Shown one piece after another: positions 12,780 through 29,800 of a stretch of 64,000 nucleotides of DNA. The notes under the pieces were generated by a model. The model was not told where the DNA came from and did not search any database. It saw only the letters and a program-made list of their open reading frames with translations. The stretch lies in the IMG/VR virus record IMGVR_UViG_3300021255_003058, positions 1 to 64,000 of that record. One strand, 5' to 3'. Numbering within the stretch: the stretch's first letter is position 1; each line of letters starts with the position of its first letter. This stretch comes from a virus (lineage: Duplodnaviria; Caudoviricetes). Made by a program: the position numbers and the translations under genes.

Positions 12780-12861
12780 ACATTATGGATGAAATTAGCG
12801 TTTTCGGACCACGGGAAGCTCTTCATCCTTTCAGTTGTCAATTCAACACTCAAACCACTCG

Positions 12862-13266: not shown

Positions 13267-13376
13267 TTACTACGGCAATTAGTAATGATTTGTGAGATTC
13301 ACCAGTCCTACTCGATTATTTTGCCGTTCATCTTTCAGTTCACCATTTTGTTACTGGATCTGTCCCGCCATGTTCG

Positions 13377-13448
13377 CGGGAGTAGAGGGAATCGAACCCA
13401 CACCGAGTGGTTAACAGCCACCTGCTACGACCTTCGAGCTATACTCCC
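13377..13448 (-). tRNA. tRNA-Asn(GTT)
   Basis: Cloverleaf. Confidence 0.9.
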
Positions 13449-13633
13449 AAATTTAGATGTTTAATTCTAAATTTTTTGTCAATTAATTTATATTTATCTT
13501 TATATGATTCAATTACACCTAAATTATATAAATCATCTCCAAAATAAATATCTAAATTATCTGTAAATTGTTCCCATTTACAAAAATCTTTTAATGTAGG
13601 ATAACCTTTAATTTCAATATACATCGAAGACAT
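13439..13633 (-). CDS. hypothetical small protein
   Basis: AT-rich coding-like ORF between tRNAs; TAG stop overlaps tRNA-Asn 5' end. Confidence 0.4.
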   Translation of the reverse strand: MSSMYIEIKGYPTLKDFCKWEQFTDNLDIYFGDDLYNLGVIESYKDKYKLIDKKFRIKHLNLGV

Positions 13634-13643
13634 TCATATTAAG

Positions 13644-13732
13644 TTCCTAATATTGGATTTACACCAATGACCTCTCTGTTACTACTCTAAAGGCAACGAT
13701 GAGCGCTCTTATAATATCTGAGCTAATTAGGA
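13644..13732 (-). ncRNA. tRNA-like element with extended anticodon arm
   Basis: Acceptor TCCTAAT/ATTAGGA, D arm GCTC/GAGC, T loop TGTAAAT. Confidence 0.55.
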
Positions 13733-14086
13733 TTCTTAATGATATGGAAATTCTGTTAATGGTAACTGACCAGATTTGCAATAATTGCTTATGGTTACTG
13801 ACCATATTATATTTACTGAACTATTTCGCTGAGGTGCTTGGCATCTCATTGAAAGGGGTTTTCCACCACTCCTCTTCCGTATCAGTTTTTATATTTTGTT
13901 GTACCAATATGTCAATGATCGCTTCGTTCATTGAAACTCTCAGTTTCAATAATGAAATGATTATGTCAAAGAACTCAATTTCAAAAACTAAATATAATTA
14001 GTTTTCAAATATTATATTAATAATATAGAACTTATTTTCAAAATTTCAAATTTCTAAGAAAAATTTTCAAATATTTTCTACATTTG

Positions 14087-14212
14087 TGATTATGGTTGGA
14101 TTCGAACCAACGTAGCTCAGGGTAACTTACTTCCTCAGTTTAACTTTATCAAGAAACCTTCTAACGTTTTCAGCAGTGACCTGATAGCACATCCAATCTG
14201 CTTCACATAATC
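14087..14212 (-). tRNA. tRNA-like gene with about 60-nt anticodon-loop region
   Basis: Acceptor GATTATG/CATAATC, TCAGG/CCTGA stem, canonical T arm. Confidence 0.55.
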
Positions 14213-14228
14213 AAAGATCTATTTTTTG

Positions 14229-14296
14229 TTTCTACATCCGGATTCGAACCGAAGACCCCTTCTTCCAAGTGCTCTTCCTAACTGAGCTATGTAGAA
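14229..14296 (-). tRNA. tRNA-like gene with truncated anticodon arm
   Basis: Good acceptor, D and T arms; anticodon arm only CTT-GGAAG-AAG. Confidence 0.6.
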
Positions 14297-14391
14297 AATC
14301 AGCTTTCATAAAAACTACCATACTCCATTATATACATACGGCCGATATTATATAACTTCATTACTCTCATTAATAATCCCACTTAAAAATG

Positions 14392-14462
14392 TTGGACCTA
14401 CGGGACTCGAACCCATAACATGAGGACCAAAATCTCACGTGTTACCATTACACCAAGGTCCA
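14392..14462 (-). tRNA. tRNA-Gln(TTG)
   Basis: Cloverleaf. Confidence 0.9.
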
Positions 14463-14853
14463 ATTTATAAAAAATCCAGTACTATTCTTCTATAATGTTC
14501 ATTTAAGTGCGAATCCTTGCTTTACATGTGGTGGGTCACTTTACCCTGATTTTCAAATTCCCATGGAAATTATCAATCCCTCATATATAGTACCTTTGTA
14601 CTTTTACAAATTGTCGTTACATAATAATATCCTATTACACGAGTACCTTTAACCTACTGACAACTTGTGGATTTTATTTTCTCTTGAGTTCATATTTTCA
14701 AAGAACGAAATAAACAATTTCAAATATTAAATGTTCATATGAAAAATTCATATTATATTAGTATTCAAATATTATTTATTTTTATTATAATTATAATATA
14801 GTATCTTTAGATTTAATTTCAAATTATTTAAGAATTTTTTAGAAAATATTTTC

Positions 14854-14949
14854 AAAAAATAAGTGGTTAAGTTTTTCACCTAACCACTTGCAGCTATATC
14901 GTTTATAATTATATTCTTATTATCCTTCCATATCATTCTGCAAGTGGTC
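14854..14949 (-). promoter_or_regulatory. Attenuator 2: terminator with competing antiterminator
   Basis: Terminator AAGTGGTTAGG-TGAAAAA-CTTAACCACTT-ATTTTTT; GACCACTTGCAG in the leader ORF pairs with CTGCAAGTGGTT. Confidence 0.75.
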
Positions 14950-15030
14950 ATTCATTAACGCATAATCATTATTCCAAGCATTATCTAATGTTTGGTCTAA
15001 TATTTGTTTATATGTATTGACTAATTGCAT
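14920..15030 (-). CDS. Leader peptide 2 MQLVNTYKQILDQTLDNAWNNDYALMNDHLQNDMEG
   Basis: 36-codon ORF overlapping the antiterminator; composition matches downstream tRNAs. Confidence 0.7.
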   Translation of the reverse strand: MQLVNTYKQILDQTLDNAWNNDYALMNDHLQNDMEG

Positions 15031-15213
15031 TTGTGATATTTTCTTTAATTTAATTTGTATATACTTACATCTATTGATGTAATTTAATTAATAATAAAAA
15101 TTTAATTCTTAATTGTTATATAAAAATAGACTATATAAATAAAAAATTTCATAAAAATGAATGATTATGAAAATATTTTTCAAAAATCATCCAAATATAG
15201 TGTCAATTGCGAG

Positions 15214-15295
15214 TACCTCCCCTGGGATTCGAACCCAGACCCAATTAAGGACCGCTTTTGAGACGGTTGCGTAGACCCAATTCCGCCAGAGAGGC
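15214..15295 (-). tRNA. tRNA-Leu(CAA)
   Basis: Cloverleaf with variable arm. Confidence 0.9.
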
Positions 15296-15426
15296 ATAAT
15301 TATAAAAAGTTAGAATCATATACAGTAAGGGCTTCGTTCATTGGCTTCTCATTTCATGTATTTCTACAATCTCATCTATTCCTTCCCTTAATCATAACTT
15401 TATATAACAAATGTTGATACAATAAA

Positions 15427-15675
15427 TTAGTTTATCTTATACAATTCTTCATTATCAATTGCACGTCTTATCCATCTCATCAATATTAATGCTTTATCGT
15501 AATGAGACATAAATGTAGCTGTTTCTCCAACATCATGTTTATCAGACAAATCTATATCAAGTGAATAAATTGTACCATCTTCTACTGTTATATGATAAAC
15601 AGCTATTCCTCCAGATTTTACACAATCAAGTTCAGCAGAACCTTTAACAATAGTTTTTAAATCATGAATAATCAT
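15427..15675 (-). CDS. hypothetical protein
   Basis: 82-aa coding-like ORF. Confidence 0.7.
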   Translation of the reverse strand: MIIHDLKTIVKGSAELDCVKSGGIAVYHITVEDGTIYSLDIDLSDKHDVGETATFMSHYDKALILMRWIRRAIDNEELYKIN

Positions 15676-15699
15676 TTATACTAATATTTATTTTTATTG

Positions 15700-15779
15700 T
15701 GCGGCTGGTGGGATTCGAACCCACACCCAATTAAGGACGGCTTCTTAAACCGCTGCGTCGACCGTTGCGCCACAGCCGC
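15700..15779 (-). tRNA. tRNA-Leu(AAG)
   Basis: Cloverleaf, loop TTAAGAA. Confidence 0.85.
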
Positions 15780-15920
15780 ATTTAGTATTTTCTGCATAGG
15801 AGAACCTTGGATTTAATGAGTAACGATAACCACTCATCCTATGGTTATTGAAAATACTTTTACTATTGTTTTATTTTAACCGATAAAACTAAATAGCTTA
15901 AATTGTCGATATCGTTTTTG

Positions 15921-15994
15921 TACCCCGAGAAGGATTCGAACCCTCATCATGACATCCGTAGTGTCGTATTCTAAATCCATTGAACTACCGGGGC
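15921..15994 (-). tRNA. tRNA-Arg(ACG)
   Basis: Cloverleaf, loop CTACGGA. Confidence 0.9.
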
Positions 15995-16003
15995 ATTTAT
16001 TTG

Positions 16004-16079
16004 TTGAACTGGACAGATTCGAATTGTCGACCTTCTGTGTGTAAAACAAATACTACTGACCTAATTGAATTACAACCCA
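16004..16079 (-). tRNA. tRNA-Val(TAC), degenerate
   Basis: Cloverleaf with mismatches, loop TTTACAC. Confidence 0.6.
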
Positions 16080-16088
16080 ATATATATG

Positions 16089-16162
16089 CTGGGGTACCGG
16101 GACTCGAACCCAGAACTTCTGCTTCAGAGACAAATGTGTTAACCAATTACACGCATACCCTA
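16089..16162 (-). tRNA. tRNA-Gln(CTG)
   Basis: Cloverleaf, loop CTCTGAA. Confidence 0.8.
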
Positions 16163-16264
16163 ATTTAATAAATTAGACACATTCTGTTATTTAGTTAACC
16201 GAGCAGATATTTTGATTCTTTCAGGTTTCAATCATCTAAGAAACAAATGCAGGCATCTAATTTG

Positions 16265-16351
16265 TACCCTGGGGGAGACTTGAACTCCCACGCTACTATT
16301 ACTTCGCACTTGCTTCTAAGGCAAGGATGTCTACCATTCCAACACCAGGGT
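16265..16351 (-). tRNA. tRNA-Leu(TAG)
   Basis: Cloverleaf with long variable arm. Confidence 0.9.
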
Positions 16352-16566
16352 AAATAGTGTCCATGTTCCATTAACGCAGGTCTTAGACACCTAACCGCAC
16401 GAATAACCATCACAACAATTGGTTACGTTATCAATCAACCAAATTACCTTTCTATAAGATTTTATGACATCCAGTTTGGAGGCAACGGCCATCTTGCTCT
16501 AATGCTGCGTACGCCTGGCACCGATTTTACATCTTAGTAAATAAGATAACTTATAGATCATAATTG

Positions 16567-16635
16567 CCACCGAAGATGGAATCAAACCATCGTCTCTTGG
16601 CAAAATCCAAGGCTCTATCATTGAGCTAATCGGTG
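16567..16635 (-). tRNA. tRNA-like gene with 6-nt anticodon loop
   Basis: CTTGG-ATTTTG-CCAAG; D and T arms present. Confidence 0.55.
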
Positions 16636-16865
16636 AAGTGACCTTTCGAGTTTCAACGGGGCTCCTCGTCCCCTATAGGATGTGACACATATCCGAAGAT
16701 ACAAAATGCAACAACTCTAACTAACGCTTCTACAGATTCCTTAGGTCAACAAGGAATGGAACAAACGATTTCCCCTAAGTGACAGAGACATTAGACTGTT
16801 TCGATTCATAGGCCTGTGCACCAACCTATGAATACCCGTAATTGTATATAGTATTATCTTTAAAA

Positions 16866-18002
16866 TTATTTCAATTGGTCTTCAATTTCCTTAATCATTT
16901 TATTTACCTTTTCAAGATATTCTTTTGCATCACGTATTGATTCATCAGATGAAGATCTATCGAAACTTCCCCAGTTTTCAGGATTTTCTTTACCTCTTTC
17001 TTTTGCGCGTTGAACTGATTTTTCTGCTGAATGTTTATAATTCATTGATTTATAGAATTGTTCATATGCATAAGAAACATATCTCATTAAATCTGATAAA
17101 TCAAAACGCATATCCATATTTTCAGGTTTTGACATTACCTTTTGGAATAAAGCAACAACATCATCATTTGTTTTCTTTATTTCATCAAACAAAACATTTG
17201 GATCATCTTGAAGTTTCTTTGCTTTGATTTCTTTTACCATTACTTTATATCTTGCTTGTTGTTGTCTAAGAAGATTATCCATGCTATCTTTGTCCATTTC
17301 TATTGAACCTTTTTGAGATTCTTCGCGTTCTTTATGTAATTGATCATAATCTTTAATCATTGATTCTGTTATTTCAAGAACATAAACATCAAAATCTTTA
17401 ATTAATTCTAATGTTTCATTAACTTTTAAAGGACGAACATCATATTTATATTTCTTTGCAGTTTTCTCTTGGACTCCTTGTTTCCAACCTTCTGACTCAA
17501 AATAATATACTCTAACATCTCCTAAAGTTTTTGCATATCCTTTAATAAATGCAACAATATCTTTAGTACCTGGAGTACAAACAATCATATCAGCAATAGT
17601 TTTCTTTGCATAAACTGATTTTAAGAACTTTACAAATTCTTTATCGTCACCTTTATATTGTTTGAAATCACTATCTTTAATTTCTGACCATTTCAAACCA
17701 CGAATACCACTTTTCTTGTCACCCCATCTTGGAGTTTCTGTTAATGGACCAAAAATAGATGCAAAAGTTTTTGCTGTCTTTGTTGGCTTATAACCGCGAC
17801 CTCCTTCTTTGTATCTTTGCTCTTGTTTCTTGTCGTTTTCAGCATGTTCCTTTTCAGCATCTTTAATTGCTTTTGCAAGATTTGTTAATAATGATGATTG
17901 AAAACTCTCATTAATTGTTTCATCAATAATTAAATTACATGTTTCAATTAATATTTCATTATTACATAAACCGTCTGATACGAATTCAAATAAATTTTTC
18001 AT
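16866..18002 (-). CDS. hypothetical protein
   Basis: 378-aa ORF. Confidence 0.8.
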   Translation of the reverse strand: MKNLFEFVSDGLCNNEILIETCNLIIDETINESFQSSLLTNLAKAIKDAEKEHAENDKKQEQRYKEGGRGYKPTKTAKTFASIFGPLTETPRWGDKKSGIRGLKWSEIKDSDFKQYKGDDKEFVKFLKSVYAKKTIADMIVCTPGTKDIVAFIKGYAKTLGDVRVYYFESEGWKQGVQEKTAKKYKYDVRPLKVNETLELIKDFDVYVLEITESMIKDYDQLHKEREESQKGSIEMDKDSMDNLLRQQQARYKVMVKEIKAKKLQDDPNVLFDEIKKTNDDVVALFQKVMSKPENMDMRFDLSDLMRYVSYAYEQFYKSMNYKHSAEKSVQRAKERGKENPENWGSFDRSSSDESIRDAKEYLEKVNKMIKEIEDQLK

Positions 18003-18038
18003 TATATTATATATATTTTTTTATATATAAAAATAAAA

Positions 18039-18359
18039 TTATAATTTCATTTGTTTCTGATATTTTCTATCTCTCTTATCAATTTCTGATAATGGAGAAA
18101 CACCAGCATCAAGCAATTCAATTTTCTCAAATCCATTTGCTTCAGTTATAAGAGAATCTTTTTCAGATATGCATCCTTCATATCGTTCTCCATAAGATCC
18201 AGTCATCTTTTTTGTTGCAGGATCTAAATCTCCCCAATCTGCAGAATGTGTATTACCAATAGGTTCTACAAAATATTTCTTTCCTGTTATTTTAGACTTT
18301 ACAATAAAACGACCAGTTTTATCGCTTTCTTGTAAAAATCTCTTTTCATCAATTTTCAT
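18039..18359 (-). CDS. hypothetical protein
   Basis: Start moved to MKIDEK to avoid tRNA overlap. Confidence 0.75.
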   Translation of the reverse strand: MKIDEKRFLQESDKTGRFIVKSKITGKKYFVEPIGNTHSADWGDLDPATKKMTGSYGERYEGCISEKDSLITEANGFEKIELLDAGVSPLSEIDKRDRKYQKQMKL

Positions 18360-18379
18360 TTTCTCTCTATATATTATTG

Positions 18380-18470
18380 CGGAGAGGGTGGGGCTCGAAC
18401 CCACGCACCGGGTATTAGCCGACCTAAGACGTTAGCAGTGTCTCCCCTTCACCAACTTGGGTACCTCTCC
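18380..18470 (-). tRNA. tRNA-Ser(GCT)
   Basis: Cloverleaf with long variable arm. Confidence 0.9.
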
Positions 18471-18536
18471 AAATTGGTTGATCAATTGGCTCAACCATAG
18501 GCCTTAATAGATGAAATGGTTACAACTTACTTACTT

Positions 18537-18621
18537 AATTCCGCGCGAGATTCGAACTCATATTTCTTCAATGAACGTTCGCAAAGTGTTTTCTCCTTTA
18601 TTAAATTTAAACTACAAGAAT
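18537..18621 (-). pseudogene. Degenerate tRNA-like gene
   Basis: T arm and D stem present; enlarged D and anticodon loops. Confidence 0.4.
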
Positions 18622-18640
18622 CTTTCAGTCATTTCATTTG

Positions 18641-18714
18641 GGTGACTTGTGGGTAACGATCCCACTACCTGTTGAGCCACAATCAACCGCTCTACCATTT
18701 GAGCTAAAGCCACC
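18641..18714 (-). tRNA. tRNA-His(GTG)
   Basis: G-1/C73, loop TTGTGGC, atypical T loop. Confidence 0.8.
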
Positions 18715-18848
18715 ATATAAATTAGTTTTTCTCATTAAGAGCTTTTGCATTATAAAACTATAAACTTTCCCGAATCTGTACGTTTCGGTAACTGATGTTC
18801 TTATGGTAATCAATTAACAGTACGTTAAAGCGCGCAACTTTGTTTATG

Positions 18849-18923
18849 GGTATCGTGTCAGATTCGAACTGACATCTCAGTGATTCACAGTCACCGTCTT
18901 TCACCAGTTAAGTTAACGACACC
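18849..18923 (-). tRNA. tRNA-His(GTG)
   Basis: G-1/C73, loop CTGTGAA. Confidence 0.85.
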
Positions 18924-19158
18924 ATATTAATGACAGGTCAACCATTCTCCCTGTCTTGTCCCGATATGTTTTTCACTATAATCAAGGCTTATAGCTGCTC
19001 AAGCAAAGAGGGCGGGATTTCAACATTATATTGTAAATTAAAATTCACAATTTTTATAACCTCATGAAGATGGCCCTACACGGATTAAAAAGGCTGCAGA
19101 GAATCCTCTATTGGAGCAGGGTGGACATGCTGCGTACCTCACAGCTCCCTGCATATTG

Positions 19159-19230
19159 AGCAGTGTACCGGATTTGAACCGGCTCCTTAAGAATGGCGAT
19201 CTCATATGCAACCATTAACACCTACACTGC
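19159..19230 (-). tRNA. tRNA-Gly(GCC)
   Basis: Cloverleaf, U73. Confidence 0.85.
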
Positions 19231-19231
19231 A

Positions 19232-20143
19232 TTATTTTTCATATAATACTTCCCAAAATTTATTTCCATATTTATTAATAACATATTCAAATACTTCAGT
19301 TAAATCTTCTTTAAATAAAACTTTAATATCTGGATTTTGCTCAGATTTTATTTGAGCAACTTTATCATAATATCCTTTTATTTCAATTATTTCATTATCA
19401 TTAATAATAAAATCTGGAAAATATTTACAAACTTTTTTATTTAATTTATAATATCTTATTTCATCGCACCTTTTAATTTTTATATTATGTTCTAAACAAT
19501 ATACCAAATAAGCTAATTCCCATGAACTATCACAATGAATACCTTTATAGTTTCCATGATGATGATTTTTAATAGAATTTGGATGATAACCACCAAAATT
19601 ATTTTTCTTTGCGTTATCGCTTAACTTAGTATGTTTACCAATTTTTAAGCATTCATTTGAACAATATTTTAATTTCTTATTATAATATTTTTTACCACAA
19701 ATAGGACATATATTATAAGGCGTCCAATCTGGATTTACTGTCCATCGATTATTAATATTTAAATTATTAATTCTTTTCTTACCCTTTATCCATGATGATT
19801 TACCCTTTAAAGAATCAGCTATTTTCTTATTCTTTTCTTCTAAATTTGTATGTAATGATGATAACTTATGAGCACATGAAGAACAACACGTTTTTCTATA
19901 ATCACCTGCATTAAATTGTTTTTGTCTTATTTGTAATGTATATTCTTTACCACAAGCTAAACATATTAATTTATACTCTTTTAGAGGATTATTTTTTTCA
20001 AATTTTTCTTTTTTTCGTAAAGAAAAATCTTTTTGATATGAATTAGGATTTTTACTACAATGTATAATATGAGCCCCTAATGATTGACCAGAGTTAAATT
20101 CTTTATTACAAAATTTACAAATATGTTTTTTATTATCTTCCAT
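19232..20143 (-). CDS. Free-standing homing endonuclease-like protein (Zn fingers, PD-(D/E)XK nuclease)
   Basis: CxxC motifs; DSSWELAY..YFPDF..IEIKG. Confidence 0.75.
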   Translation of the reverse strand: MEDNKKHICKFCNKEFNSGQSLGAHIIHCSKNPNSYQKDFSLRKKEKFEKNNPLKEYKLICLACGKEYTLQIRQKQFNAGDYRKTCCSSCAHKLSSLHTNLEEKNKKIADSLKGKSSWIKGKKRINNLNINNRWTVNPDWTPYNICPICGKKYYNKKLKYCSNECLKIGKHTKLSDNAKKNNFGGYHPNSIKNHHHGNYKGIHCDSSWELAYLVYCLEHNIKIKRCDEIRYYKLNKKVCKYFPDFIINDNEIIEIKGYYDKVAQIKSEQNPDIKVLFKEDLTEVFEYVINKYGNKFWEVLYEK

Positions 20144-20224
20144 ATATTAATATAGTTTTATATAATTAATAATAAATATAGCAGAAGAAAAAAGTCAAAC
20201 TATAATTGTTAAAAAATGTTAAAG

Positions 20225-20297
20225 AGCGACTGATGGGAGTCGAACCCACATCACTGGATTGGAAGTCGAGTATAATAAACCGTTATACGACAGTCGC
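20225..20297 (-). tRNA. tRNA-Gly(TCC)
   Basis: Cloverleaf, U73. Confidence 0.85.
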
Positions 20298-20417
20298 AAA
20301 TTCGGTTTTCCTTAGATCCGAAAACTTAGTACCGTGTCTCGCCTCTGTACCCTCGCCTTAGCATACTTCCATTATATTATATAGTACGTAATTCAAATAT
20401 AATGTCTAAGGATTTTG

Positions 20418-20551
20418 TAGGGGAGGTTGGACTCGAACCAACATAATCTTTAACCAAAATAAAGTGTGTAAACCTGAAGTAACTCTAATCTACAGCATTC
20501 ATTAAGAAGCAACAGCGAATAAAGTCAATAAATTAATTTCACCACTCCCCT
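20418..20551 (-). tRNA. tRNA-Gln(TTG) with about 61-nt intron (20476-20536) in D loop
   Basis: Cloverleaf restored after removing insert ending GAGTTACTTC. Confidence 0.8.
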
Positions 20552-20553
20552 AG

Positions 20554-20627
20554 TAGCCCCCACGGGATTCGAACCCGTTATTCCGGCTTGAGAGACCGAC
20601 GACTTAAACCAATCTGTCCCGAGGGCC
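20554..20627 (-). tRNA. tRNA-Glu(CTC)
   Basis: Cloverleaf. Confidence 0.85.
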
Positions 20628-20634
20628 ATCAAAT

Positions 20635-20777
20635 AATTCCTGTAACATGCTTGAAAAGTGTTTTTATGGACTCGAACCATCACCTCGGGCTTTGCAGGCC
20701 CGCGCTCTAACCACTTAAGCTAAAAATCCAAAGTTTCTGGTGGATTAAGAAGTAACTCTTCAATTCAACAAGGAATT
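20635..20777 (-). tRNA. Circularly permuted tRNA-Cys(GCA) flanked by split intron-like element
   Basis: Acceptor 3' strand with CCA (TTAATCC-A-CCA, 20738-20748) lies upstream of the body GGATTTT..T arm (20666-20729). Confidence 0.8.
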
Positions 20778-20881
20778 TGGGTGGAGGTATCTTATCACTA
20801 TCAGATATCCGATTGTTTTTCTTTGCAAGATATAATTATAAGTACTGTTTAACTAGTCCTGCGCAAGTGAACCTCCATGTG

Positions 20882-20953
20882 TACCGATAGGCTGAGTTGA
20901 ACAGCCATCTAAGCCTTATGAGAGCCCCGTAATTACCGTTATACGATATCGGC
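20882..20953 (-). tRNA. tRNA-Met/Ile2(CAT)
   Basis: Cloverleaf, loop CTCATAA. Confidence 0.85.
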
Positions 20954-21247
20954 ATGGTCACCGGCCTAGTTCCATGCCTACCTCGAGTAGCATAGGATGG
21001 GACCGGTGTTGTATGGTCGGGAACCACTGACTTTCACAGGACCTCTACCCACCAACGGGTAGCGCAGTGTGTTCGCTTCTTCAAATTCAATTTCATAAGG
21101 TAGCTAATCTTACTAATTTTTCTCTCTGTCATTACTTATCATTATTATAAATATTATTGATCTCGAGAACTTTTGACCTAATCGCGGTCTTACGCAAATA
21201 TTTATAAATAATGACTTTCATACGAATCATTTTGCTAATTCCCAAAG

Positions 21248-21320
21248 TTGAGCGACCGGGACTTGAACCCGGATTGCGTGATTATCAGTCACGTCTCTTA
21301 ACCGTTTGGAGGATCGCTCA
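21248..21320 (-). tRNA. tRNA-Ile(GAT)
   Basis: Cloverleaf. Confidence 0.85.
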
Positions 21321-21324
21321 ATAT

Positions 21325-21403
21325 ATTCATGTAACATTCGAGAAAAGTAAATTTGGAATAATCTTGGCAAGATTTGAAGTATCTCTTCTCTACAACAATG
21401 AAT
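21325..21403 (-). ncRNA. Bipartite intron-like element, permuted order, short hairpin cargo
   Basis: ATTCAT-TGTTGTA-GAGAAGAGA-TACTTC...ACTTTTCTC-GAATGTTAC-ATGAAT. Confidence 0.75.
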
Positions 21404-21406
21404 TTG

Positions 21407-21480
21407 TTGGGCTACCGAGATTCGAACTCAGACCTTCAGCTTCAAAGGCTGACGTGCTAACCGTTACACAGCATAGCCCA
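21407..21480 (-). tRNA. tRNA-Gln(TTG)
   Basis: Cloverleaf. Confidence 0.85.
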
Positions 21481-21486
21481 ATATAA

Positions 21487-21611
21487 AAAATAATGCTACC
21501 TATTACACCACTCCCCGAATTACACTTTCACCTACAATGTTCATGACCATTAAGGAATCCCTCCATATAGAAGGCGACACAGGGAATTGGGATTCGAACC
21601 CAAACCATTTT
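21487..21611 (-). tRNA. Permuted tRNA-like gene opened at the anticodon loop
   Basis: 3' half (AAAAT..T arm..TTCCCTG) precedes 5' half (CGGGGAG..D arm..ATTTT); 61-nt spacer. Confidence 0.65.
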
Positions 21612-21617
21612 CGTTCG

Positions 21618-21691
21618 TTGGGATATCCGGATTCGAACCGAAACCTGCGGAGTCAGAGTCCGCTGTACTAACCATTATACTGTATATCCCA
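21618..21691 (-). tRNA. tRNA-Gln(CTG)
   Basis: Cloverleaf. Confidence 0.85.
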
Positions 21692-21714
21692 ATATTGTTA
21701 AAATTTTATTATTG

Positions 21715-21787
21715 TTGGGCCACTCGGGAATGATCCGAGATCGCATCCTTATCAGGGATGTATCCTTACCAGTTAGACGACAGCCCA
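21715..21787 (-). tRNA. tRNA-Ile(GAT)
   Basis: Cloverleaf, atypical T loop. Confidence 0.8.
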
Positions 21788-22125
21788 ATATAAAATTGAA
21801 ATTCTTGCAAGTAATACTTAGATAAACCCATCCTGTTTGGACCGTTCTGGGAATTAATAAGTTAACGTCAAATACCAGACTTCCCACGAATAGCATGCTT
21901 TCGAGACATACCTAATTAACTTCCTATTATCTTTGTATAATTTCAATTTAATTTGAAATAAAGTTCTGTTCCATCTCGCTCAATGTATTTAAGCTTAAGC
22001 CTATGGGAGTTCTTTCTTGATGCGCACTCGATTATGACAACTCCAGCAAGTGATATGTGGTAAATTTCCGGATAACCCATATCTCTAATGCCAACTTTAC
22101 CCATCTGTCTGGGATGTGAACTTTG

Positions 22126-22199
22126 TACGGATAAGCAGATTCGAACTGCCATCTCCAGCTTGAAAGGCTGGCCACCTAACCTATTAGTAAGATACCCGC
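22126..22199 (-). tRNA. tRNA-Glu(TTC)
   Basis: Cloverleaf. Confidence 0.85.
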
Positions 22200-22202
22200 A
22201 TG

Positions 22203-22280
22203 AATTCCTGTAATAAGCGAATAAAGTATTTTATTAAGATCCAAATTCTTTGAAGTAACTCTATTCTTCAACAAGGAATT
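22203..22280 (-). ncRNA. Bipartite intron-like element, permuted order, short cargo
   Basis: AATTCCT-TGTTGAA-GAATAGAGT-TACTTC...ACTTTATTC-GCTTATTAC-AGGAATT. Confidence 0.75.
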
Positions 22281-22285
22281 ATTTG

Positions 22286-22357
22286 TAGCCCCGCGGAGAC
22301 TCGAACTCCGATGACCAGGTTGAAAACCTGAGATCCTGACCGTTAGATGACAGGGCC
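22286..22357 (-). tRNA. tRNA-Glu(TTC)
   Basis: Cloverleaf. Confidence 0.9.
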
Positions 22358-22428
22358 ATAATTACAAGTGATAATATTTAAATTTATACTCAAATATATT
22401 TAAACTTATACTCATACATTAATGTAAT

Positions 22429-23370
22429 TTATAAACTTGTATTATTATAATAAATTAAAAACTTATTAATCTTTTCTTCCATTAATTGTTTACCATGTTC
22501 TGAATTAATTTCATTCCATGGTATTCTATAAACTTCTATTCCTTTAGATTTTATGAATTCATCTCTGATTTTATCAGATTCTTTTCGCTCTTTATATAAA
22601 TGTTGTTTACCATCTATCTCTAAATCAATCTTTCTATCATTTATTTCAATATAAAAATCTAAAAAATATCTTTCACCACTTCCTTTGTTACCATATTCTA
22701 ATACATATTCACGTACATATTGAATATTGTTATTATCTAAAACTTGTTTCCAAAATTTTTCTGCATAACTTATAATATTACGAGATTTCCAACCTTGAAA
22801 TGTTCCATTTTGAATTTCTTTTTTTCTTTGTAATGAAGATTGTTTTGATATTGATTTTTGTCTACATTCATCAGAACAATATTTTTGAAATTTATTACTT
22901 TCAAATTCTTTATTACAATATTTACATATACATTTTCGAACACCATAAACATATTCTCCATATTGGTTAGCTAATTTATATTTATGTTGTTTAATACCTT
23001 TTAAAAATGTATTAGATATTTTTCTTTTTGTTTCTTCTGTTCGTTTACCTTTTTTCTTATTTCCTAATGCTGAACCACAAGATTGATTACAACATTTTGC
23101 AAATCTTTTTTTAAATGGTAATTTCTTTCCACAATATTCACAATATTTAGGATTTAAATCATAATCTCGTTTTTGAATTTCTAGCCAATGATTAGATAAA
23201 TTCTTTTTAGAAATTTGTTCTTTAGATTCAATTCCTATTTGTGAAAAATACATAAGAATATCTTTATCTATGTATCCTCCATTTTGATTAGTGCGAATAT
23301 TTAGTTTTTTACAAATTTCTGATTTTGACTTAGAATAATCATAAATATTTTGAATTTCTTCTTTAGTCAT
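22429..23370 (-). CDS. Free-standing homing endonuclease-like protein (Zn fingers, DUF559/Vsr-like nuclease)
   Basis: CxxC motifs; YFLDF..LEIDGKQH..RIPW. Confidence 0.75.
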   Translation of the reverse strand: MTKEEIQNIYDYSKSKSEICKKLNIRTNQNGGYIDKDILMYFSQIGIESKEQISKKNLSNHWLEIQKRDYDLNPKYCEYCGKKLPFKKRFAKCCNQSCGSALGNKKKGKRTEETKRKISNTFLKGIKQHKYKLANQYGEYVYGVRKCICKYCNKEFESNKFQKYCSDECRQKSISKQSSLQRKKEIQNGTFQGWKSRNIISYAEKFWKQVLDNNNIQYVREYVLEYGNKGSGERYFLDFYIEINDRKIDLEIDGKQHLYKERKESDKIRDEFIKSKGIEVYRIPWNEINSEHGKQLMEEKINKFLIYYNNTSL

Positions 23371-23444
23371 TTTAACTATTATATATTTAATTAGTAATAG
23401 TAAAATTTATCAAAAAATTCAAATTCGAACTAACAACTTTATAG

Positions 23445-23517
23445 TCGGGAATGTTGGATTTGAACCACTCCTCATCACCCCAAATGACGTATGCTACCCG
23501 TTTACACTACATTCCCG
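23445..23517 (-). tRNA. tRNA-Pro(TGG)
   Basis: Cloverleaf. Confidence 0.85.
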
Positions 23518-23594
23518 TAGTAAACACTTTTATTATTTATACTCCTCACATGGTTCCCACACATTGTTTATACTCAAGTTTCTTGGAGTTTTTG

Positions 23595-23674
23595 TCTGGG
23601 AGACAGGACTCGAACCTGCATAACTTAATCTCGCTTCCAAAGCGAGTCGGTCACCCATTACCGGCTACACCCAG
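23595..23674 (-). tRNA. tRNA-Pro(TGG)
   Basis: Cloverleaf, enlarged variable region. Confidence 0.8.
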
Positions 23675-23951
23675 ATAAATCTTTCCAAATCCTTGTACTT
23701 AATATTTCCTCTACATTCCACGTAAGCGAGGTAATTCTTGGCGCCTTAAGGACAAGATAACTCTCAAGATACTGAAAATAATTATGAATATGCGCATATT
23801 GTTTAATATAATTACTTTCAGAGTTTACTCAACATCGGTTGAGCTTAAACAAATTTAGACTTAGATACACGTCTGGGGGACTTTGCTCAATTTAATCTAA
23901 GTCTTTATAATACAAATTACAACTTATTTTTTATATAAGTAATTTATATTG

Positions 23952-24028
23952 TGGGTTGGGCCAGAGTTGAACTGTTGAGCTCCTCCAGTTTTTCAGACTG
24001 GCGTGCGGACCGCCTACACCACCAACCC
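23952..24028 (-). tRNA. tRNA-Phe(GAA)
   Basis: Cloverleaf. Confidence 0.85.
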
Positions 24029-24066
24029 AAATTATAACCATTATAAAATGATTAAATTTTATTATA

Positions 24067-24202
24067 ATTATCGGAACAGCTATAAAAGTATTATTATGAA
24101 ACTTTCTCTCGGATTCGAACCGAGGAATCAATTCTGGAAAAATTGCATTAAACCACTTAATTAAAAAAGTAATCGAAGTAACTCTTATATACACCAGATA
24201 AT
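24067..24202 (-). tRNA. tRNA-Gly(TCC) (24100-24170) wholly enclosed by permuted intron-like element
   Basis: ATTATC-TGGTGTA-TATAAGAGT-TACTTC, tRNA, ACTTTTATA-GCTGTTCC-GATAAT. Confidence 0.75.
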
Positions 24203-25063
24203 TTATATCTTATTATTTTTCTTTATGTAAGGTTTATATATATTAAAAAAATCAATATAATATTTTTTTAATGCTCTAAATATACATTTATCAAATAATT
24301 CATTTTTTTCTTTTAAATAATTTATTAATTTTTTTGACCAACCAAATTTTGAAAAATCTATATTTGATTCTTTACATGCAGATTCTAAAATTTGTTTCTT
24401 TTTATTATTATCTTTTTCTTTTTTAATTTTTCTATTAATTTTATCAGTATACTGTTGATCTTTATATTTAGAAAAATCTTCATATAGTATTCTCCAAAAT
24501 TCTTTGCCATATTTATTTATAACATATTCTAAATAAGGTTTTATTAAAATTTCATCAATAACTTTAATATTTGGAAATTGTTTTTCCTTTTCTAAAGATT
24601 TTTTACTTTTTCGCCCTTTAATTTCAATTAAACCTTCATCTGTTATAAAATCAGGAATATAAATATGTTCTTCATTATTCCATATATATTTGAATTTTTT
24701 ATTACATCTTTCAATATATAAATTATGTTCAATATAATAAACTAAAAATGCTAATTCCCAAGTACTATCACAATGAATATTATTATACCAACCTTGTTTA
24801 CTATTACCATGTTTTTTATTAAACTTCCAATTAGTATTACCTTTCATTGATTTTGAAATTTTAATTCTTCTTTCAATTTCCTTTTGTGGATCTTTACATT
24901 TTCCACATGATATACCTTGTCTAGATTTTTTTATATGTTTTTTATATTCATCATTAATTCCATATACCCACCCTTCATTTAGGTATTTGTTAATATCATT
25001 AGGATTAACATAAATACATATATTATTTTTATTCATCCATTTATATCCTTTGCTAGTACTCAT
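24203..25063 (-). CDS. Free-standing homing endonuclease-like protein (PD-(D/E)XK)
   Basis: DSTWELAF..YIPDF..IEIKG; paralogous to 19232-20143. Confidence 0.75.
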   Translation of the reverse strand: MSTSKGYKWMNKNNICIYVNPNDINKYLNEGWVYGINDEYKKHIKKSRQGISCGKCKDPQKEIERRIKISKSMKGNTNWKFNKKHGNSKQGWYNNIHCDSTWELAFLVYYIEHNLYIERCNKKFKYIWNNEEHIYIPDFITDEGLIEIKGRKSKKSLEKEKQFPNIKVIDEILIKPYLEYVINKYGKEFWRILYEDFSKYKDQQYTDKINRKIKKEKDNNKKKQILESACKESNIDFSKFGWSKKLINYLKEKNELFDKCIFRALKKYYIDFFNIYKPYIKKNNKI

Positions 25064-25140
25064 ATATTAATATAGAAATATTTATAATTAAAAATAAACA
25101 TTTTTTATTAAATCAGATTACTACCTTAATAATATTTATG

Positions 25141-25225
25141 ACTCCGGTGTTGGATTCGAACCAACGCGAGGTTACCCTAATGGATTTGCAGTCCATCCCA
25201 ATCGACCAGACTCTAGCAACCGGAG
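25141..25225 (-). tRNA. tRNA-Cys(GCA) with long variable arm
   Basis: Cloverleaf, U73. Confidence 0.85.
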
Positions 25226-25231
25226 ATTAAA

Positions 25232-25395
25232 ATTTACGGAATAATCGAATAAAGAATAATTATAAAAGGACCAGCGCGTTTACCAGTTTCACCACCGCGG
25301 TACATAATGTACATGGGCCGGACTAGAACCGACAAGGAACTTACTTCCACCGGTTTTACAAGCTTATGAAGTAACTCTATTCTTCACCAGTAAAT
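25232..25395 (-). tRNA. Circularly permuted class-II tRNA-like gene (GTA?) split in the anticodon loop, flanked by split element
   Basis: Element 3' half, ..TTGTAAA-ACCGG-V arm-T arm-acceptor, linker, acceptor-D arm-CTGGT, element 5' half; acceptor stem imperfect. Confidence 0.65.
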
Positions 25396-25425
25396 CTTTT
25401 CTTTTATTTATAAAATATAAATTTG

Positions 25426-25512
25426 CGGAGAGACAGGGACTCGAACCCTGAAGCCGTTACTAGCGACCTGCCAATTTTCAAGATTGGTTCCTCATCCAGC
25501 CGGATCCTCTCC
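25426..25512 (-). tRNA. tRNA-Ser(TGA)
   Basis: Cloverleaf with long variable arm. Confidence 0.9.
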
Positions 25513-25605
25513 ATAACTTCCTTCCTCAACAGTTTATCTATACATCTATGAAGGACATCTGATTCTAATTATCTTCTCGACAACCAGTGACTGTATATTA
25601 TTTTG

Positions 25606-25850
25606 AAAGTTTCCTACATCTGTCTTAGAGCTATTAACCAACCGCCTTAAAAAGGATACGGTGCAGATTCTCACTGCTTTTCTCTTTCACAGTCCCCATC
25701 ACGTTGCTTTACGTACCTATGATCTCAATCACATGTTTGCCACTACAAGATCTTCCAACTGTCAATTCAGTATGCCCGTAGGATAAGATGGAATTACTTA
25801 AGGTAAACCTTAAACCCATATTTATATACTTATCCAGCCTCGGAAACTTT
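25606..25850 (-). ncRNA. Putative structured ncRNA
   Basis: GC-richer block closed by AAAGTTTCC/GGAAACTTT. Confidence 0.4.
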
Positions 25851-25889
25851 ATATTTATTTATTGTACCAACATGTCAAAGAACGTTTAT

Positions 25890-25989
25890 TAAATATTCTG
25901 GGATTCGAACCCAGGCGATGAGGTTTTCCCTTTCATCAGGGTTTTGAAATTATCTCGACTCCCGCAATTGGCCACTCTGCCAAATATTT
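25890..25989 (-). tRNA. Class-II tRNA-like gene with 15-nt anticodon loop ending TTTCAAA
   Basis: Acceptor AAATATT/AATATTT; D, V and T arms intact. Confidence 0.6.
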
Positions 25990-25997
25990 AATAATTG

Positions 25998-26069
25998 TAG
26001 CCGGTTCGGGATTCGAACCCGAATGGCAAGAATGAAAATCTTGAATCCTAACCTTTAGATGAACCGGCC
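25998..26069 (-). tRNA. tRNA-Glu(TTC)
   Basis: Cloverleaf. Confidence 0.9.
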
Positions 26070-26072
26070 ATT

Positions 26073-26084
26073 ATGTCAAAGAAC
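26073..26084 (-). promoter_or_regulatory. boxA-like antitermination motif GTTCTTTGACAT
   Basis: Repeated at 25872 and 13963, variants at 14695 and 13909, each shortly after a promoter-like motif. Confidence 0.55.
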
Positions 26085-26113
26085 TAATTCAATTTTAGAA
26101 ATTGAGAAAAAAT

Positions 26114-26188
26114 ACTCTGTTGACTTACCGTTAGTCTACCATGCCTTATTAGGTGCTTTAATCGGATTCGAACCGACATTTCCAGAGT
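26114..26188 (-). tRNA. Permuted tRNA-like gene opened at the anticodon loop
   Basis: ACTCTG..T arm precedes D arm (GACT/AGTC)..CAGAGT; acceptor stem degenerate. Confidence 0.55.
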
Positions 26189-26192
26189 TTTG

Positions 26193-26266
26193 TATGGATA
26201 ACGGGATTCGAACCCGTATCTTTAGCTTGAGAGGATAATCACCTGACCTATTAGTAAGATACCCAC
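26193..26266 (-). tRNA. tRNA-Glu(CTC)
   Basis: Cloverleaf. Confidence 0.85.
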
Positions 26267-26312
26267 ATATTAAATATTATTAATATTCAAATATTATTTG
26301 TTTTCGTTTACA

Positions 26313-26346
26313 ATTATAATATAGTATCTTTAGATTTTGTTTCAAA
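26313..26346 (-). promoter_or_regulatory. Promoter-like motif TTTGAA-N16/17-CTATATT
   Basis: Near-identical copy at about 14790-14823; same consensus ahead of many minus-strand blocks. Confidence 0.55.
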
Positions 26347-26398
26347 ATATTTTAATTTTTTTTCTAATTTTTTTAATTTCTTAATTTCTTATATAACT

Positions 26399-26490
26399 AA
26401 AAACTCCGGAATTTATATTCCGGAGTTCTACTTTATATATTAGTATTAAATTATATAATCATTATTATATTTTAGTATATCCGGAAACAT
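26399..26490 (-). promoter_or_regulatory. Attenuator 1: terminator with competing antiterminator
   Basis: Terminator AACTCCGGAAT-ATAA-ATTCCGGAGTT-TTT; ATGTTTCCGGA in the leader ORF pairs with TCCGGAATAT. Confidence 0.7.
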
Positions 26491-26577
26491 TTGTCTAAAT
26501 TCAAAGCTCAATCCACAAGGTTCACCAAAAATTGATGATCCGAAAATTGATTCAATATGTTGACTTAATTGCTTCAT
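26446..26577 (-). CDS. Leader peptide 1 MKQLSQHIESIFGSSIFGEPCGLSFEFRQMFPDILKYNNDYII
   Basis: 43-codon ORF overlapping the antiterminator; composition matches downstream tRNAs. Confidence 0.7.
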   Translation of the reverse strand: MKQLSQHIESIFGSSIFGEPCGLSFEFRQMFPDILKYNNDYII

Positions 26578-26603
26578 GTTATACTTATTTTATAATCTTA
26601 TTA

Positions 26604-26716
26604 TTTAAGATATTTACTATCTTTATAATTTATAATAATGGAAATTTCATAAATAAAATATTCCATATTTAATCTTACTGTTTAAGATATTTACTATCTT
26701 TATAATTTATAATAAT
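26604..26716. repeat. 36-bp direct repeat, 2 copies
   Basis: tttaagatatttactatctttataatttataataat at 26604 and 26681. Confidence 0.8.
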
Positions 26717-26827
26717 ATTAAATTAGATAAATGTTAAAAGAATTTCAATTTTTTTAGAAAAAATTTCTTATTCTGATAATTTTACTATTATTTTTAATTA
26801 TATATAATATATAGTAAGATTAATAAT

Positions 26828-29800
26828 ATGTTCAAACCTTTATTAAGAACATTACCAACGTTATCTGGTAATTTTACAATTGCATGTAAACTTAGAGAAT
26901 TCAATAAAGAAAATAATAATGAATATTCTACATATGTTAGATTAGCAAATATGATTCCATTACAAAATTTCATGTCAAACAAAAACATTGAAATTAATTT
27001 ATTGGATGGAAAATATGAATATGATGTAGCAAAATATTACTATTACTATTCAAATGTATTTTATAAGCATAATTACACATATAATAAAAATAATTATGCA
27101 ATTTTAGATTTAGACTCTATATATAATTACAATAATGATTCTCGTAATAAAGATTATGAATTTGGTTGTAAACGTATTCAATTTAGTCAGCATGGAAGTC
27201 AATTTAATTTCTATGCTCCAATATATATAGATAATATTAATGACTTACCAGAATATTTCTGTATTAATATTGTTATTAATGACCATTTAACTAAAAAAAT
27301 AAAAATATATATAAATAAAGATAATAAAAGAAATTATCTTAAAAATTACTTAGTAAGATATTTAAAACAAATAGATGAACGAGTAATATTTTGTTTACCA
27401 GAATCTTTACAAGCAACATATTTTGGTATTGATATTAGAAATGGTGGTATAAGCCAATATAAAGATAATGTATTTGGTAGTTTATATATTAATCAAAAGA
27501 CAATTAATAACTTTGATTATACTATATGCAAAGGATTTGAAAGAAATAATATTATAATGAGACAAATCATTCCTTTAAGTTTTTCATTTAATATTAATGA
27601 TTTGTTTAATAATTATGAACGTGATTTCTTTACAGGAGCAAAAATGCATATAAATGGAAATTATTTTACTAAAGGAAATACTGTATATGATATGTATGAT
27701 TTTGATATTAACTATACAAATAGTTTTAAGAATTTCAAAAAATATAATGAATATACAGGAGCATATGATTTCGTTATTGGAAAAGACTCAAATAATAAAT
27801 CAATAAATATAATGGATGTTGGGTTCCCTGCATTAAATGAATCCAAATATATTAAATATGCATACACTAATAAAATAACACCAATGTATTGTAAATTTAA
27901 AATGATGTTATCTGATGATAGTAATCCTTATATAACAAATATTAATTTTGCATATTCATATAACCAATATCCAAATCAGAAATATGGAGAATTTCCTACA
28001 ATGTTTAAAGGATTATTTCCAAAAATCATTATTGATAATAATGATTTAAAACTTCCTATTGGAGCATCATTAGATAAATATTATAAAGTAATAAAGAACA
28101 CCGGTAATAAAGTTATTATAAATACTAACAATATTGACAAATATAATAAATTAATGTCTAACTATTGTTCATCATGGTATAAAATAAATAATAATTTTGA
28201 TACTGATAATTTAGATGATTTCTTTAATAATGAAAATTGGTCAGACGTTAAATATGGATATTCATATTTTAATGGAATATTATATAATTTGAAAGATATT
28301 GGTAAAATTGATAAATTTGGTGTATTCTGTGATGTAAAATTAAATTATTTAAGTGAATCTAATATATATAATAACTTAATTAAAGGTAATATAATTTTAA
28401 GTGGAGAAACATTGTCATCTGGTAAAAAATTCTTTAATTATAATCAATCATATGATATGAAAATATATGATAATGATTATAATATAGAATATTTTAATAA
28501 AATTGTTGATATATCATTAAATAATTTTTCAGAAGATAATGTTAAAATTAATCAAAATATGATTAAAGATATCTATGGAACATATATAATTGAAGAAAAT
28601 TTTATCGAAGAAAATATGTTCTATAAAATTGATGATATATTTAATCAATTTAAAATTTATTTATCTATACAAGAATTAAAAGATAAATTAATAGAAAAAC
28701 AAATAAATGGATTTGAATTATTAGAAGCATACAATAATATAAATTTCTTTAATGAAAAATATGACAGTATATATGGAGAAACTGTTAAACAATTTATGCT
28801 TATTGGAAAAACATATGACACACAAGAATATCAAGAAAAATATAATTGGCTTTATAATTTATTATATTATACTACACAGTTAACGAAAGAAAAATATAAA
28901 GTTAGTGATAATTATAATTCAATATATTATAATGAAGATATTAATGGTAAATTGTGTATGTTTATCAAAAACAGATTTATTCATAAAACAGATTTATTGA
29001 ATATATTAAAAGAATATAATGAAGACTTATTAAAGTTTGGTGATCTGAATCAACTTGTAAAAATTTGTTTTAATTATTTTGTAGAAAACGAAAGAAACAT
29101 ATTTCATAATATTAGTAATATTGATTCTCCAATTTTAGATGAAAATGGGAAAACAATTAGATTGTCATTAGATAATTGGCTTATTAATCAAATTGGAACT
29201 GATTTATTTAATGAATTAAAAACTCATTATGCTTATTCGCAATTTAGAACAATTTTATTACAAATGATTACTGAATATAATAGTGATTCAAGTATAACAC
29301 CAGATAAAATTAATCCTAATGAAACAATAAAAGGGCATAATTTAATATTTCTATCAAATTATTTATCATTATTGCAATCATATAAATTTGAAATACTTGG
29401 TAATAAAAATGGAATTGATATAAAAGATTATTTTATAAAAAATGAATCAAATGAAAAGGACATATATGTTGATCCATATAATTTAGAAAATTATATAGAT
29501 TTATATAATAAAAATCATAATGATAAAATATCAAAAAAATTTACATATAGAAAAATATTTAGTAATATAATTGATAAAAATCATTTAATAGAATTTTGTC
29601 AAAAACTTAAGAATTTTGATAATGATTTAAATCCAATAATATCTAACGTAAATTTATTGGATATTATATATGTAAAAGAACGTTGCTGGTATATTGAAAA
29701 TAATGTAATTGATATTAAAGATAGATATATTTCATTATATGATTATCTTTATAATAAATTCGTTGAAATTGGTAATAAAGAACGTATTAAATATAAATCA

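Follow-up and report, generated by a model that had tools for sequence, protein, structure and literature searches.

Putative leader-peptide attenuators at the heads of the two tRNA gene arrays of a giant phage

A short open reading frame (ORF) heading an array of transfer RNA (tRNA) genes was analyzed in a 64,000-nt stretch of viral DNA (Duplodnaviria; Caudoviricetes), which comprises positions 1 to 64,000 of IMG/VR record IMGVR_UViG_3300021255_003058. This stretch, referred to below as the window, is part of a 116-kb phage contig with 27% GC, and ARAGORN detected 51 tRNA genes in it, located on the minus strand only (6556–26069). The ORF, called leader ORF A, precedes array A, and a second one, leader ORF B, precedes array B. 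Leader A is probably a ribosome-mediated (leader-peptide) transcription attenuator heading array A, with a twin at array B, and would serve as a meter of tRNA supply. Comparison of variants showed that an in-ORF antiterminator and the terminator covary, that the frame stays open, and that nearly all codons before the antiterminator are read by tRNAs encoded downstream. The features of leader A and its array are the following.

26709–26737 (−): candidate promoter P1 for the leader transcript, TTAACA-17 nt-TATTAT, with 10/12 consensus matches; assigned by consensus match only
26570–26585 (−): segment 1 (putative protector), the start-codon region of leader A, pairing with the antiterminator segment in the minimum free energy (MFE) folds of the untranslated leader
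26446–26577 (−): leader ORF A; its sensing region is proposed to span codons 1 to about 27
26519–26541 (−): central hairpin in leader ORF A (codons 13–20), present in all folds and near-invariant in its nucleotides
26480–26490 (−): segment 2 (antiterminator), with the core UUCCGGA at 26480–26486, complementary to the terminator 5′ arm
26399–26427 (−): segments 3 and 4, intrinsic terminator A; stem 26427–26402, loop AUAA, U-run 26403–26399
26284–26346 (−): promoter motif P2, between terminator A and the first tRNA gene; TTGAAA, 16–18 nt, TATATT/TATTAT and a conserved downstream block
15213–26264 (−): tRNA array A, from ARAGORN, Rfam and relaxed ARAGORN

Leader ORF A has 43 codons in the window, which differs in this from its relatives (34–37 codons). 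A gap of 17 nt separates its end from the terminator hairpin, and its in-ORF segment, read from 26490 to 26480, holds the heptamer UUCCGGA, which is a copy of the terminator 3′ arm and the complement of the 5′ arm. The genes after leader A are tRNA genes only, with the endonuclease ORFs of the initial annotation interspersed among them. When the minus strand was scanned from 13000 to 27500, a region covering array A and the start of array B, the only strong intrinsic terminators were those of leaders A and B. Leader B has the same build, with a terminator of its own whose 5′ arm is complementary to a segment inside the ORF (14950–14938), and its features are as follows.

14920–15030 (−): leader ORF B, 36 codons, of which codons 1–28 are all readable by array B
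14938–14950 (−): antiterminator segment of leader B, forming a 13-bp duplex with 14881–14893
14854–14893 (−): terminator of leader B; stem 14889–14861, U-run 14859–14854, and a 5′ extension that pairs with the antiterminator
14762–14823 (−): second copy of the P2 motif, with sigma-70-like hexamers
6556–14462 (−): tRNA array B, from ARAGORN; the same set is found in the relatives

The proposed mechanism is as follows. Transcription from the upstream promoter would give a leader RNA with four segments, namely the start-codon region (1), the antiterminator within the ORF (2) and the two arms of the terminator (3 and 4). With no ribosome loaded, segment 1 would pair with 2 and segment 3 with 4, and transcription would stop. 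With smooth reading, the ribosome would cover segment 2 while segments 3 and 4 are made, and the terminator would form. If the ribosome were delayed within about the first 27 codons, segment 2 would be free to pair with segment 3, and the polymerase would continue into the tRNA genes. Slow decoding by any tRNA of the set would in this way raise transcription of the whole set, and sufficiency would turn it off. The supply-meter reading is proposed because the first 27 or so codons, except codon 2, are read by tRNAs encoded downstream and cover nearly every isotype. The structures in this scheme rest on comparison, and the dynamics are what we infer.

Five viral contigs (52–80% identity) were found by means of a neighbouring 1838-residue protein, and an exact-pattern scan of metagenome contigs gave 18 further loci. 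The viral relatives and metagenome loci together contained 12 distinct leader-A sequences, all of which have the same ATG and an open frame (34–43 codons), so that conservation of the ORF, named as a check in the initial annotation, was seen in 12/12 variants. Leader B sequences also came from four of the viral genomes and from a sixth one, L096; not counting L096, there are five distinct variants altogether, and every frame, that of L096 included, is open. In L096, about 4.2 kb (8120–12330) lies between the end of array A and leader B, compared with about 180 nt in the window. Searches of public phage genomes by blastn with the leader region and of viral contigs by an exact-motif scan for the promoter motif gave no match. 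A 15-base leader pattern occurred at 58 viral loci and was real only at the five known relatives; a second leader pattern and a profile search with the neighbouring protein yielded no further relatives. The MAFFT alignment misplaced the terminator 5′ arm between lineages, and covariation was tabulated instead from anchored pairs.

Terminator A of the window has a predicted energy of −17.8 kcal/mol and a stem of 13 pairs in the MFE fold (11 by the scan count). The leader-A terminators carry a U-run and have energies of −15 to −19 kcal/mol in all variants, and those of leader B gave −13.6 to −17.7 kcal/mol when folded alone. Pairing of the antiterminator segment with the terminator 5′ arm through UUCCGGA, described in the initial annotation, was found again as a 7-bp duplex in the window, and duplexes of 7–10 bp are present over all 12 leader-A variants. 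One variable pair of this duplex is C-G in six variants, U-A in five and U-G in one, and is thus paired in 12/12; the same base of the 5′ arm faces the 3′ arm as G-C, A-U or G-U. The in-ORF segment and both terminator arms covary in this way (CCGG versus CUGG/CCAG), and a second pair of the terminator A stem flips from A-U to U-A among the variants. Three-way covariation was also observed in leader B, where an A-to-G change in the antiterminator of lineage G004 is matched in both terminator arms.

When nascent RNA that begins just ahead of the antiterminator segment and reaches the loop of the terminator was folded, the antiterminator formed in all 12 leader-A variants (−12 to −20.6 kcal/mol) and in 5/5 leader-B variants (−17.6 to −23.6 kcal/mol). 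For leader B of the window, the nascent fold had −23.6 kcal/mol versus −16.0 kcal/mol for the terminator, and over the 17 variants of both leaders the antiterminator energies were judged to equal or exceed those of the terminators (overall ranges −12 to −24 kcal/mol versus −14 to −21 kcal/mol). The antiterminator duplexes, with lengths of 7–13 bp and compensatory changes, belonged to the MFE structure of the nascent RNA in 17/17 variants. In every variant, the MFE fold of the untranslated leader joins the start-codon region to the antiterminator segment, a pairing that is kept though the sequence differs between lineages. When the energy of the duplex between segments 1 and 2 was compared with that of 500 shuffles, at most 3/500 was obtained in six of the nine leader-A variants tested and 45–141/500 in the other three (the L003-type and L002 being weaker); for leader B, the values were only 11–38/500 in four of the five variants. 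The central hairpin is near-invariant in both leader ORFs, with one pair swapped from A-U to U-A in the L003-type lineage, and is possibly a pause hairpin for RNA polymerase. These comparisons indicate that the terminator/antiterminator switch is very likely real, and they support a predicted four-segment, trp-like attenuator design. The initial annotation had pointed to conservation of the stems and to alternative structures as checks; the terminator and the in-ORF complement covary and the alternative folds are present in all variants. Its proposal of a second leader with the same build also held, including the three-way covariation, and the amino-acid and codon match described below is cleaner in the relatives.

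As for translation, the start of the leader is fixed and its stop codon lies beyond segment 2 in all variants of A and B. Variable sites in leader A number 9, 8 and 14 at the first, second and third codon positions, and synonymous states number 14 in the ORF frame versus 10 and 5 in the other two frames. In one lineage, a Gln and a Leu codon occur in swapped order with the composition kept. No Shine-Dalgarno motif was found at the leader ORF. This motif is present in only 2 of 67 long ORFs of the phage, below background, and many of the phage ORFs start with ATG AAA or ATG AAG; leaders with no ribosome-binding motif and with Lys at codon 2 are therefore normal here. Such genes suggest a host with Shine-Dalgarno-independent initiation, such as a member of the Bacteroidota. 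Together, these features of the sequence provide moderate evidence that the leader ORF is read.

The 43-codon length in the window results from a 1-nt length difference from all relatives, located just before the antiterminator, which shifts the frame and leads to a later stop and a tail rich in Asn, Asp and Tyr. The initial annotation had observed that these three residues appear only after the antiterminator segment; this is true of the window, but the tail is a window-specific frameshift. It had also held that tolerance of frame-disrupting changes in relatives would speak against an attenuator. A frame change does exist and is tolerated, but it is limited to the last codons in the window, for which the model holds codon identity to be irrelevant.

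A structured cis-acting RNA switch working with no ribosome (riboswitch-like, or binding a protein or tRNA), in which the open frame would be incidental, is an unlikely explanation. It would agree with the highly structured leader, its long-range closing helices and invariant central hairpin, the near-total nucleotide conservation of the central block and the lack of a Shine-Dalgarno motif. However, all 12 + 5 variants have an open frame whose stop follows segment 2, and variation is skewed to third positions and synonymous states. Neither the match of codons to tRNAs nor the ending of this match 1–3 codons before segment 2 is predicted by such a switch; moreover, lack of a Shine-Dalgarno motif is the rule in genes of this phage. 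Rfam searches of both leader regions at expectation values (E) up to 10 returned noise only, namely FourU (18.7 bits), MicC and His_leader (15 bits, versus a gathering score of 49), with no family match.

The tRNAs of array A are those for Glu, Cys, Gly, Phe, Pro, Ile(gat), Gln, Met, His, Ser(gct), Leu(tag, aag, caa) and Arg(acg), with a weak Val(tac). Rfam and relaxed ARAGORN contributed a few weaker genes, among them Glu(ctc) at 26195–26264 and the weak Val(tac) at 16004–16079. Array B has tRNAs for Gln, Asn, Leu(taa), Asp, Lys, Val, Tyr, Trp, Ile(tat, gat), Met, Thr, Ser(tga) and Ala and a CUA suppressor. The split of isotypes between the two arrays is identical in all relatives, which have a good Val(tac) in array A and an Arg tRNA nowhere.

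The first 32 codons of leader A use exactly the 13 amino acids listed in the initial annotation (Met, Lys, Gln, Leu, Ser, His, Ile, Glu, Phe, Gly, Pro, Cys and Arg), and, as it had stated, 12 of 13 match the isotypes of array A each way and the two leaders together use all 20 amino acids. For Arg, the match holds at the amino-acid level but is not cognate, the codon being AGA and the anticodon ACG. In the relatives, which have no Arg tRNA, leader A contains no Arg codon save one exception near the antiterminator. Within these 32 codons, 16 residues are exclusive to array A versus 1 exclusive to array B (Lys at codon 2), with P ~6e-7 against proteome frequencies. The first 28 codons of leader B have 18 residues exclusive to array B and none exclusive to array A (P ~4e-4, 0.649 to the 18th power). 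Among the 652 ATG-initiated ORFs of at least 25 codons in six frames of the 116 kb, leader A ranks first by length of the prefix that contains no more than one residue exclusive to the other array (32 codons, the next being 28 and 19), and the prefix of leader B is the second longest of its kind. The prefix lengths for these statistics were chosen after looking, a point against our interpretation, and the match was for this reason re-examined in relatives.

For the relatives, codons were counted as readable under standard wobble, with U34 reading all four codons of a family box (strict wobble gave similar values), and the background was the share of genome codon usage readable by the array in question. 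Before the antiterminator, leader A codons readable by their own array A numbered 26/27 in G001, 28/29 in G004 and 26/27 in G003, Lys-2 being the sole failure (background 0.46–0.55; P 3e-8 to 7e-7). Leader B codons readable by their own array B were 28/28, 26/26, 24/24 and 27/27 (background 0.59–0.71; P 2e-6 to 7e-5), and codons of the opposite array are under-represented in each leader. Out of 57,764 stop-free 26-codon stretches in the 116-kb genome, a score of 25/26 with the array-A decoders of G001 or G003 was reached by leader A and one other place only, and 26/26 with the array-B decoders of the same two genomes by leader B only. In G004, Ile(tat) has its place in array A and not in B, and array A holds Leu(taa) as well; there, leader B has no early AUA and leader A has UUA three times. 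The leaders contain no single-codon runs, and their panel of about 11–12 amino acids is represented by 1–4 codons each.

Base composition cannot explain the split, because similar codons are separated: leader A uses His (CAU), and leader B uses Asn, Asp and Tyr (AAU, GAU and UAU, distinguished from CAU by their first base). Likewise, Cys and Phe belong to leader A, and their respective counterparts Trp and Tyr to leader B. In every variant the codon match stops 1–3 codons before segment 2. This fits the footprint of a ribosome, since one stalled there would itself cover segment 2. We regard it as likely that the switch is coupled to translation and that the panel of codons has been selected to match the array.

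A random small ORF beside a terminator in AT-rich DNA, with a fortuitous composition, is very improbable. Short ORFs are common, the 32-codon cut-off was set post hoc, and the composition of leader B is only moderately unusual (2nd of 652), with several equally long runs in the six-frame translation. On the other side stand the genome-wide empirical null, the binomial tests, conservation and covariation, and the presence of two complementary leaders at two array heads. The view of the initial annotation that chance is unlikely was borne out by the prefix ranking, the codon-window null and the binomial tests.

A free-standing micropeptide gene, with its own promoter, an insulating terminator and some other function, is quite improbable, although the order of promoter, ORF, terminator and new promoter resembles a separate transcription unit and the block GSSIFGEPCG is conserved. 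In a plain gene, the covarying in-ORF complement of the terminator 5′ arm would have no role. The C-terminal part varies freely in frame and length, substitutions keep to the amino-acid set of the array and not to side-chain character, and the Gln/Leu pair can exchange places. In addition, array B is headed by an unrelated peptide whose RNA design is the same.

The attenuator could also be coupled to translation and sense amino-acid starvation or general translation capacity, not tRNA supply, with the tRNA arrays as merely one target. A stalled ribosome cannot distinguish a missing from an uncharged tRNA, and amino-acid operon attenuators have the same design. Starvation sensing gives no reason, however, for 20 amino acids being split between the leaders as the tRNA genes are, or for the codon-level tracking, and amino-acid starvation is not relieved by more tRNA. 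We regard this explanation as rather improbable and retain the attenuator that meters tRNA supply.

A motif of about 60 nt with sigma-70-like hexamers, P2, follows each terminator, and a weaker third copy is located at 14017–14050 (−). In relatives, P2 occurs in dozens of copies per genome, and in L015 one copy (1510–1570) lies about 40 nt upstream of a protein gene. The post-terminator motif that the initial annotation regarded as shared by the two leaders is thus real (26313–26346 and 14790–14823), but it is predicted to be a general phage promoter and not array-specific. In the 116-kb contig, the only strong P2 copies are the three in the tRNA region. The motif was compared by eye with the Bacteroidota consensus TTTG / TAnnTTTG and showed no fit. 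With P2 after each terminator, the attenuator would modulate read-through only and not all transcription of the array; the switch would be a regulated component on top of the P2 output. Read-through from the upstream promoter at leader A, and read-through arriving from array A at leader B, are proposed to be what is governed. Classical attenuated operons also have internal promoters; P2 therefore complicates rather than contradicts the model. At the place of candidate P1, the relatives have TTGACA-17-TATTAT. A 47-nt direct repeat upstream of leader A in the window (26593–26639 and 26670–26716; 96% identical, 77-nt spacing) duplicates the −10-like part of candidate P1 and is a single copy in the relatives. 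From this repeat, the window may have tandem leader promoters.

Several further points weigh against a supply-metering attenuator. Given P2 between terminator and tRNA genes, the arrays need not depend on read-through. All variants come from one phage family and are hence not independent. The near-invariance of the central ORF block at the nucleotide level fits an RNA constraint as well as a coding one, and in two lineages the unusual Leu codon CUC serves to complete an RNA stem as well. The codon match of leader A in the window itself is weaker (26/32; P ~1e-5): conventional Ser(tga), Leu(taa) and Arg(tct) tRNAs were not found in array A of the window, which leaves UCA (used three times), UUA and AGA without a conventional cognate there. 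Ser is absent from leader B though some B arrays have Ser tRNAs. Finally, coupling of transcription and translation is an assumption of the model.

Some tRNA genes of the window depart from those of the relatives. The Arg(acg) tRNA (15921–15994, −) is present in the window only (0/5 relatives) and adjoins the degraded Val(tac) (16004–16079, −), which is intact in all relatives. A Ser-tRNA-like element at 25880–25995 (−) has D and T arms, but its acceptor stem is not normal and its anticodon region is interrupted; it occupies the place of Ser(gct) or Ser(tga) in relatives and may belong to the unconventional tRNA forms noted in the initial annotation. It might be the source of the missing Ser(tga), but the abnormal acceptor stem speaks against this. 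A sequence at 14229–14296 (−) was called Phe(gaa) by relaxed ARAGORN (44 bits in Rfam), which would break the partition. The Phe reading was rejected, since in alignment the gene is a homologue of Thr(tgt) that has lost 5 nt from its anticodon stem; it is probably a pseudogene. Array B ends with a gene (6556–6627, −), also found in G004, that has the anticodon CUA of a TAG suppressor. TAG is used in neither leader, and the phage may read it as sense in some genes. The sequence GTTCTTTGACAT occurs in three exact copies on the array strand shortly after the array heads (26073–26084, 25872–25883 and 13963–13974, −), with near-copies at the same place in relatives; with two mismatches allowed, 15 were found versus 10.3 expected, which is not above chance.

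Among known systems, the leaders trpL, hisL, pheL, leuL and thrL and those of ilvGMEDA (Ile, Leu, Val) and pheST likewise have a short ORF, an intrinsic terminator and a competing antiterminator, as well as an upstream protector such as is predicted for the phage leaders, and their read-out is ribosome position on the leader, as proposed here. The phage leaders are different in that tRNA genes are controlled and not biosynthetic or synthetase genes, and in that a multi-amino-acid panel mirroring the isotypes of the array replaces the run of regulatory codons. Their putative protector spans the start codon and not the codons with a regulatory role, their ORF stops beyond the antiterminator segment instead of ahead of it, and a promoter follows the terminator. 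No sequence similarity to hisL was observed, the His_leader score being far below gathering as given above. On structural grounds, the phage leaders would be placed with the leader-peptide attenuators, from which they depart only in the kind of gene predicted to be controlled.

T-boxes resemble the phage leaders in that a terminator/antiterminator decision is set by the state of a particular tRNA. However, a T-box binds one uncharged tRNA via a specifier codon and the T-box bulge, needs no ribosome and controls synthetase or amino-acid genes, whereas the phage element has a conserved ORF and is proposed to read a dozen tRNA species at once. The T-box covariance model gave no match at E up to 10 in either leader region, and by its sequence features the element is not a T-box. 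In the stalling leaders of ermC and cat, a stalled ribosome on a short ORF likewise remodels downstream RNA pairing. They act through a ribosome that carries a drug and halts at a defined peptide motif, and the majority unmask a ribosome-binding site instead of preventing termination; the phage leader implies no drug or arrest motif.

Phage tRNA sets have been discussed as codon compensation or as a counter-defence against host tRNA nucleases (PMC10264068, PMC11464382, PMC11555353). These papers give a reason for carrying tRNAs when those of the host are cut or short, which is the condition that the switch would sense, and they appear to address what the tRNAs are for. No published account of leader-peptide control of tRNA genes was found in the full-text literature searched, the coverage of which is incomplete. 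To our knowledge, the regulation of phage tRNA genes is largely unknown, the current debate being about what the tRNAs are for, and leader-peptide attenuation, known since the trp operon, has been described only for amino-acid and synthetase genes.

On a wider scale, we lean somewhat towards the view that the tRNA arrays of giant phages work as self-tuning units, each with its own codon panel linked to a terminator switch of four segments. If any single tRNA ran short, owing to host tRNA nucleases, host shut-off or codon demand, the array would then be induced. Two such units would share the 19 amino acids for which every member of the family has a phage tRNA (Arg is left out, its tRNA occurring only in the window). 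If true, leader-peptide attenuation would extend to tRNA genes, with a new regulatory principle in which a multi-codon panel takes the place of a single-codon run. The leader ORF would spell out which tRNAs the phage treats as one supply unit, and the arrays would offer a testable link between host tRNA depletion, including that caused by anticodon-nuclease defences, and a counter-response of the phage. Each leader would then be a compact natural sensor that follows how fast about a dozen codons are decoded, all at the same time.

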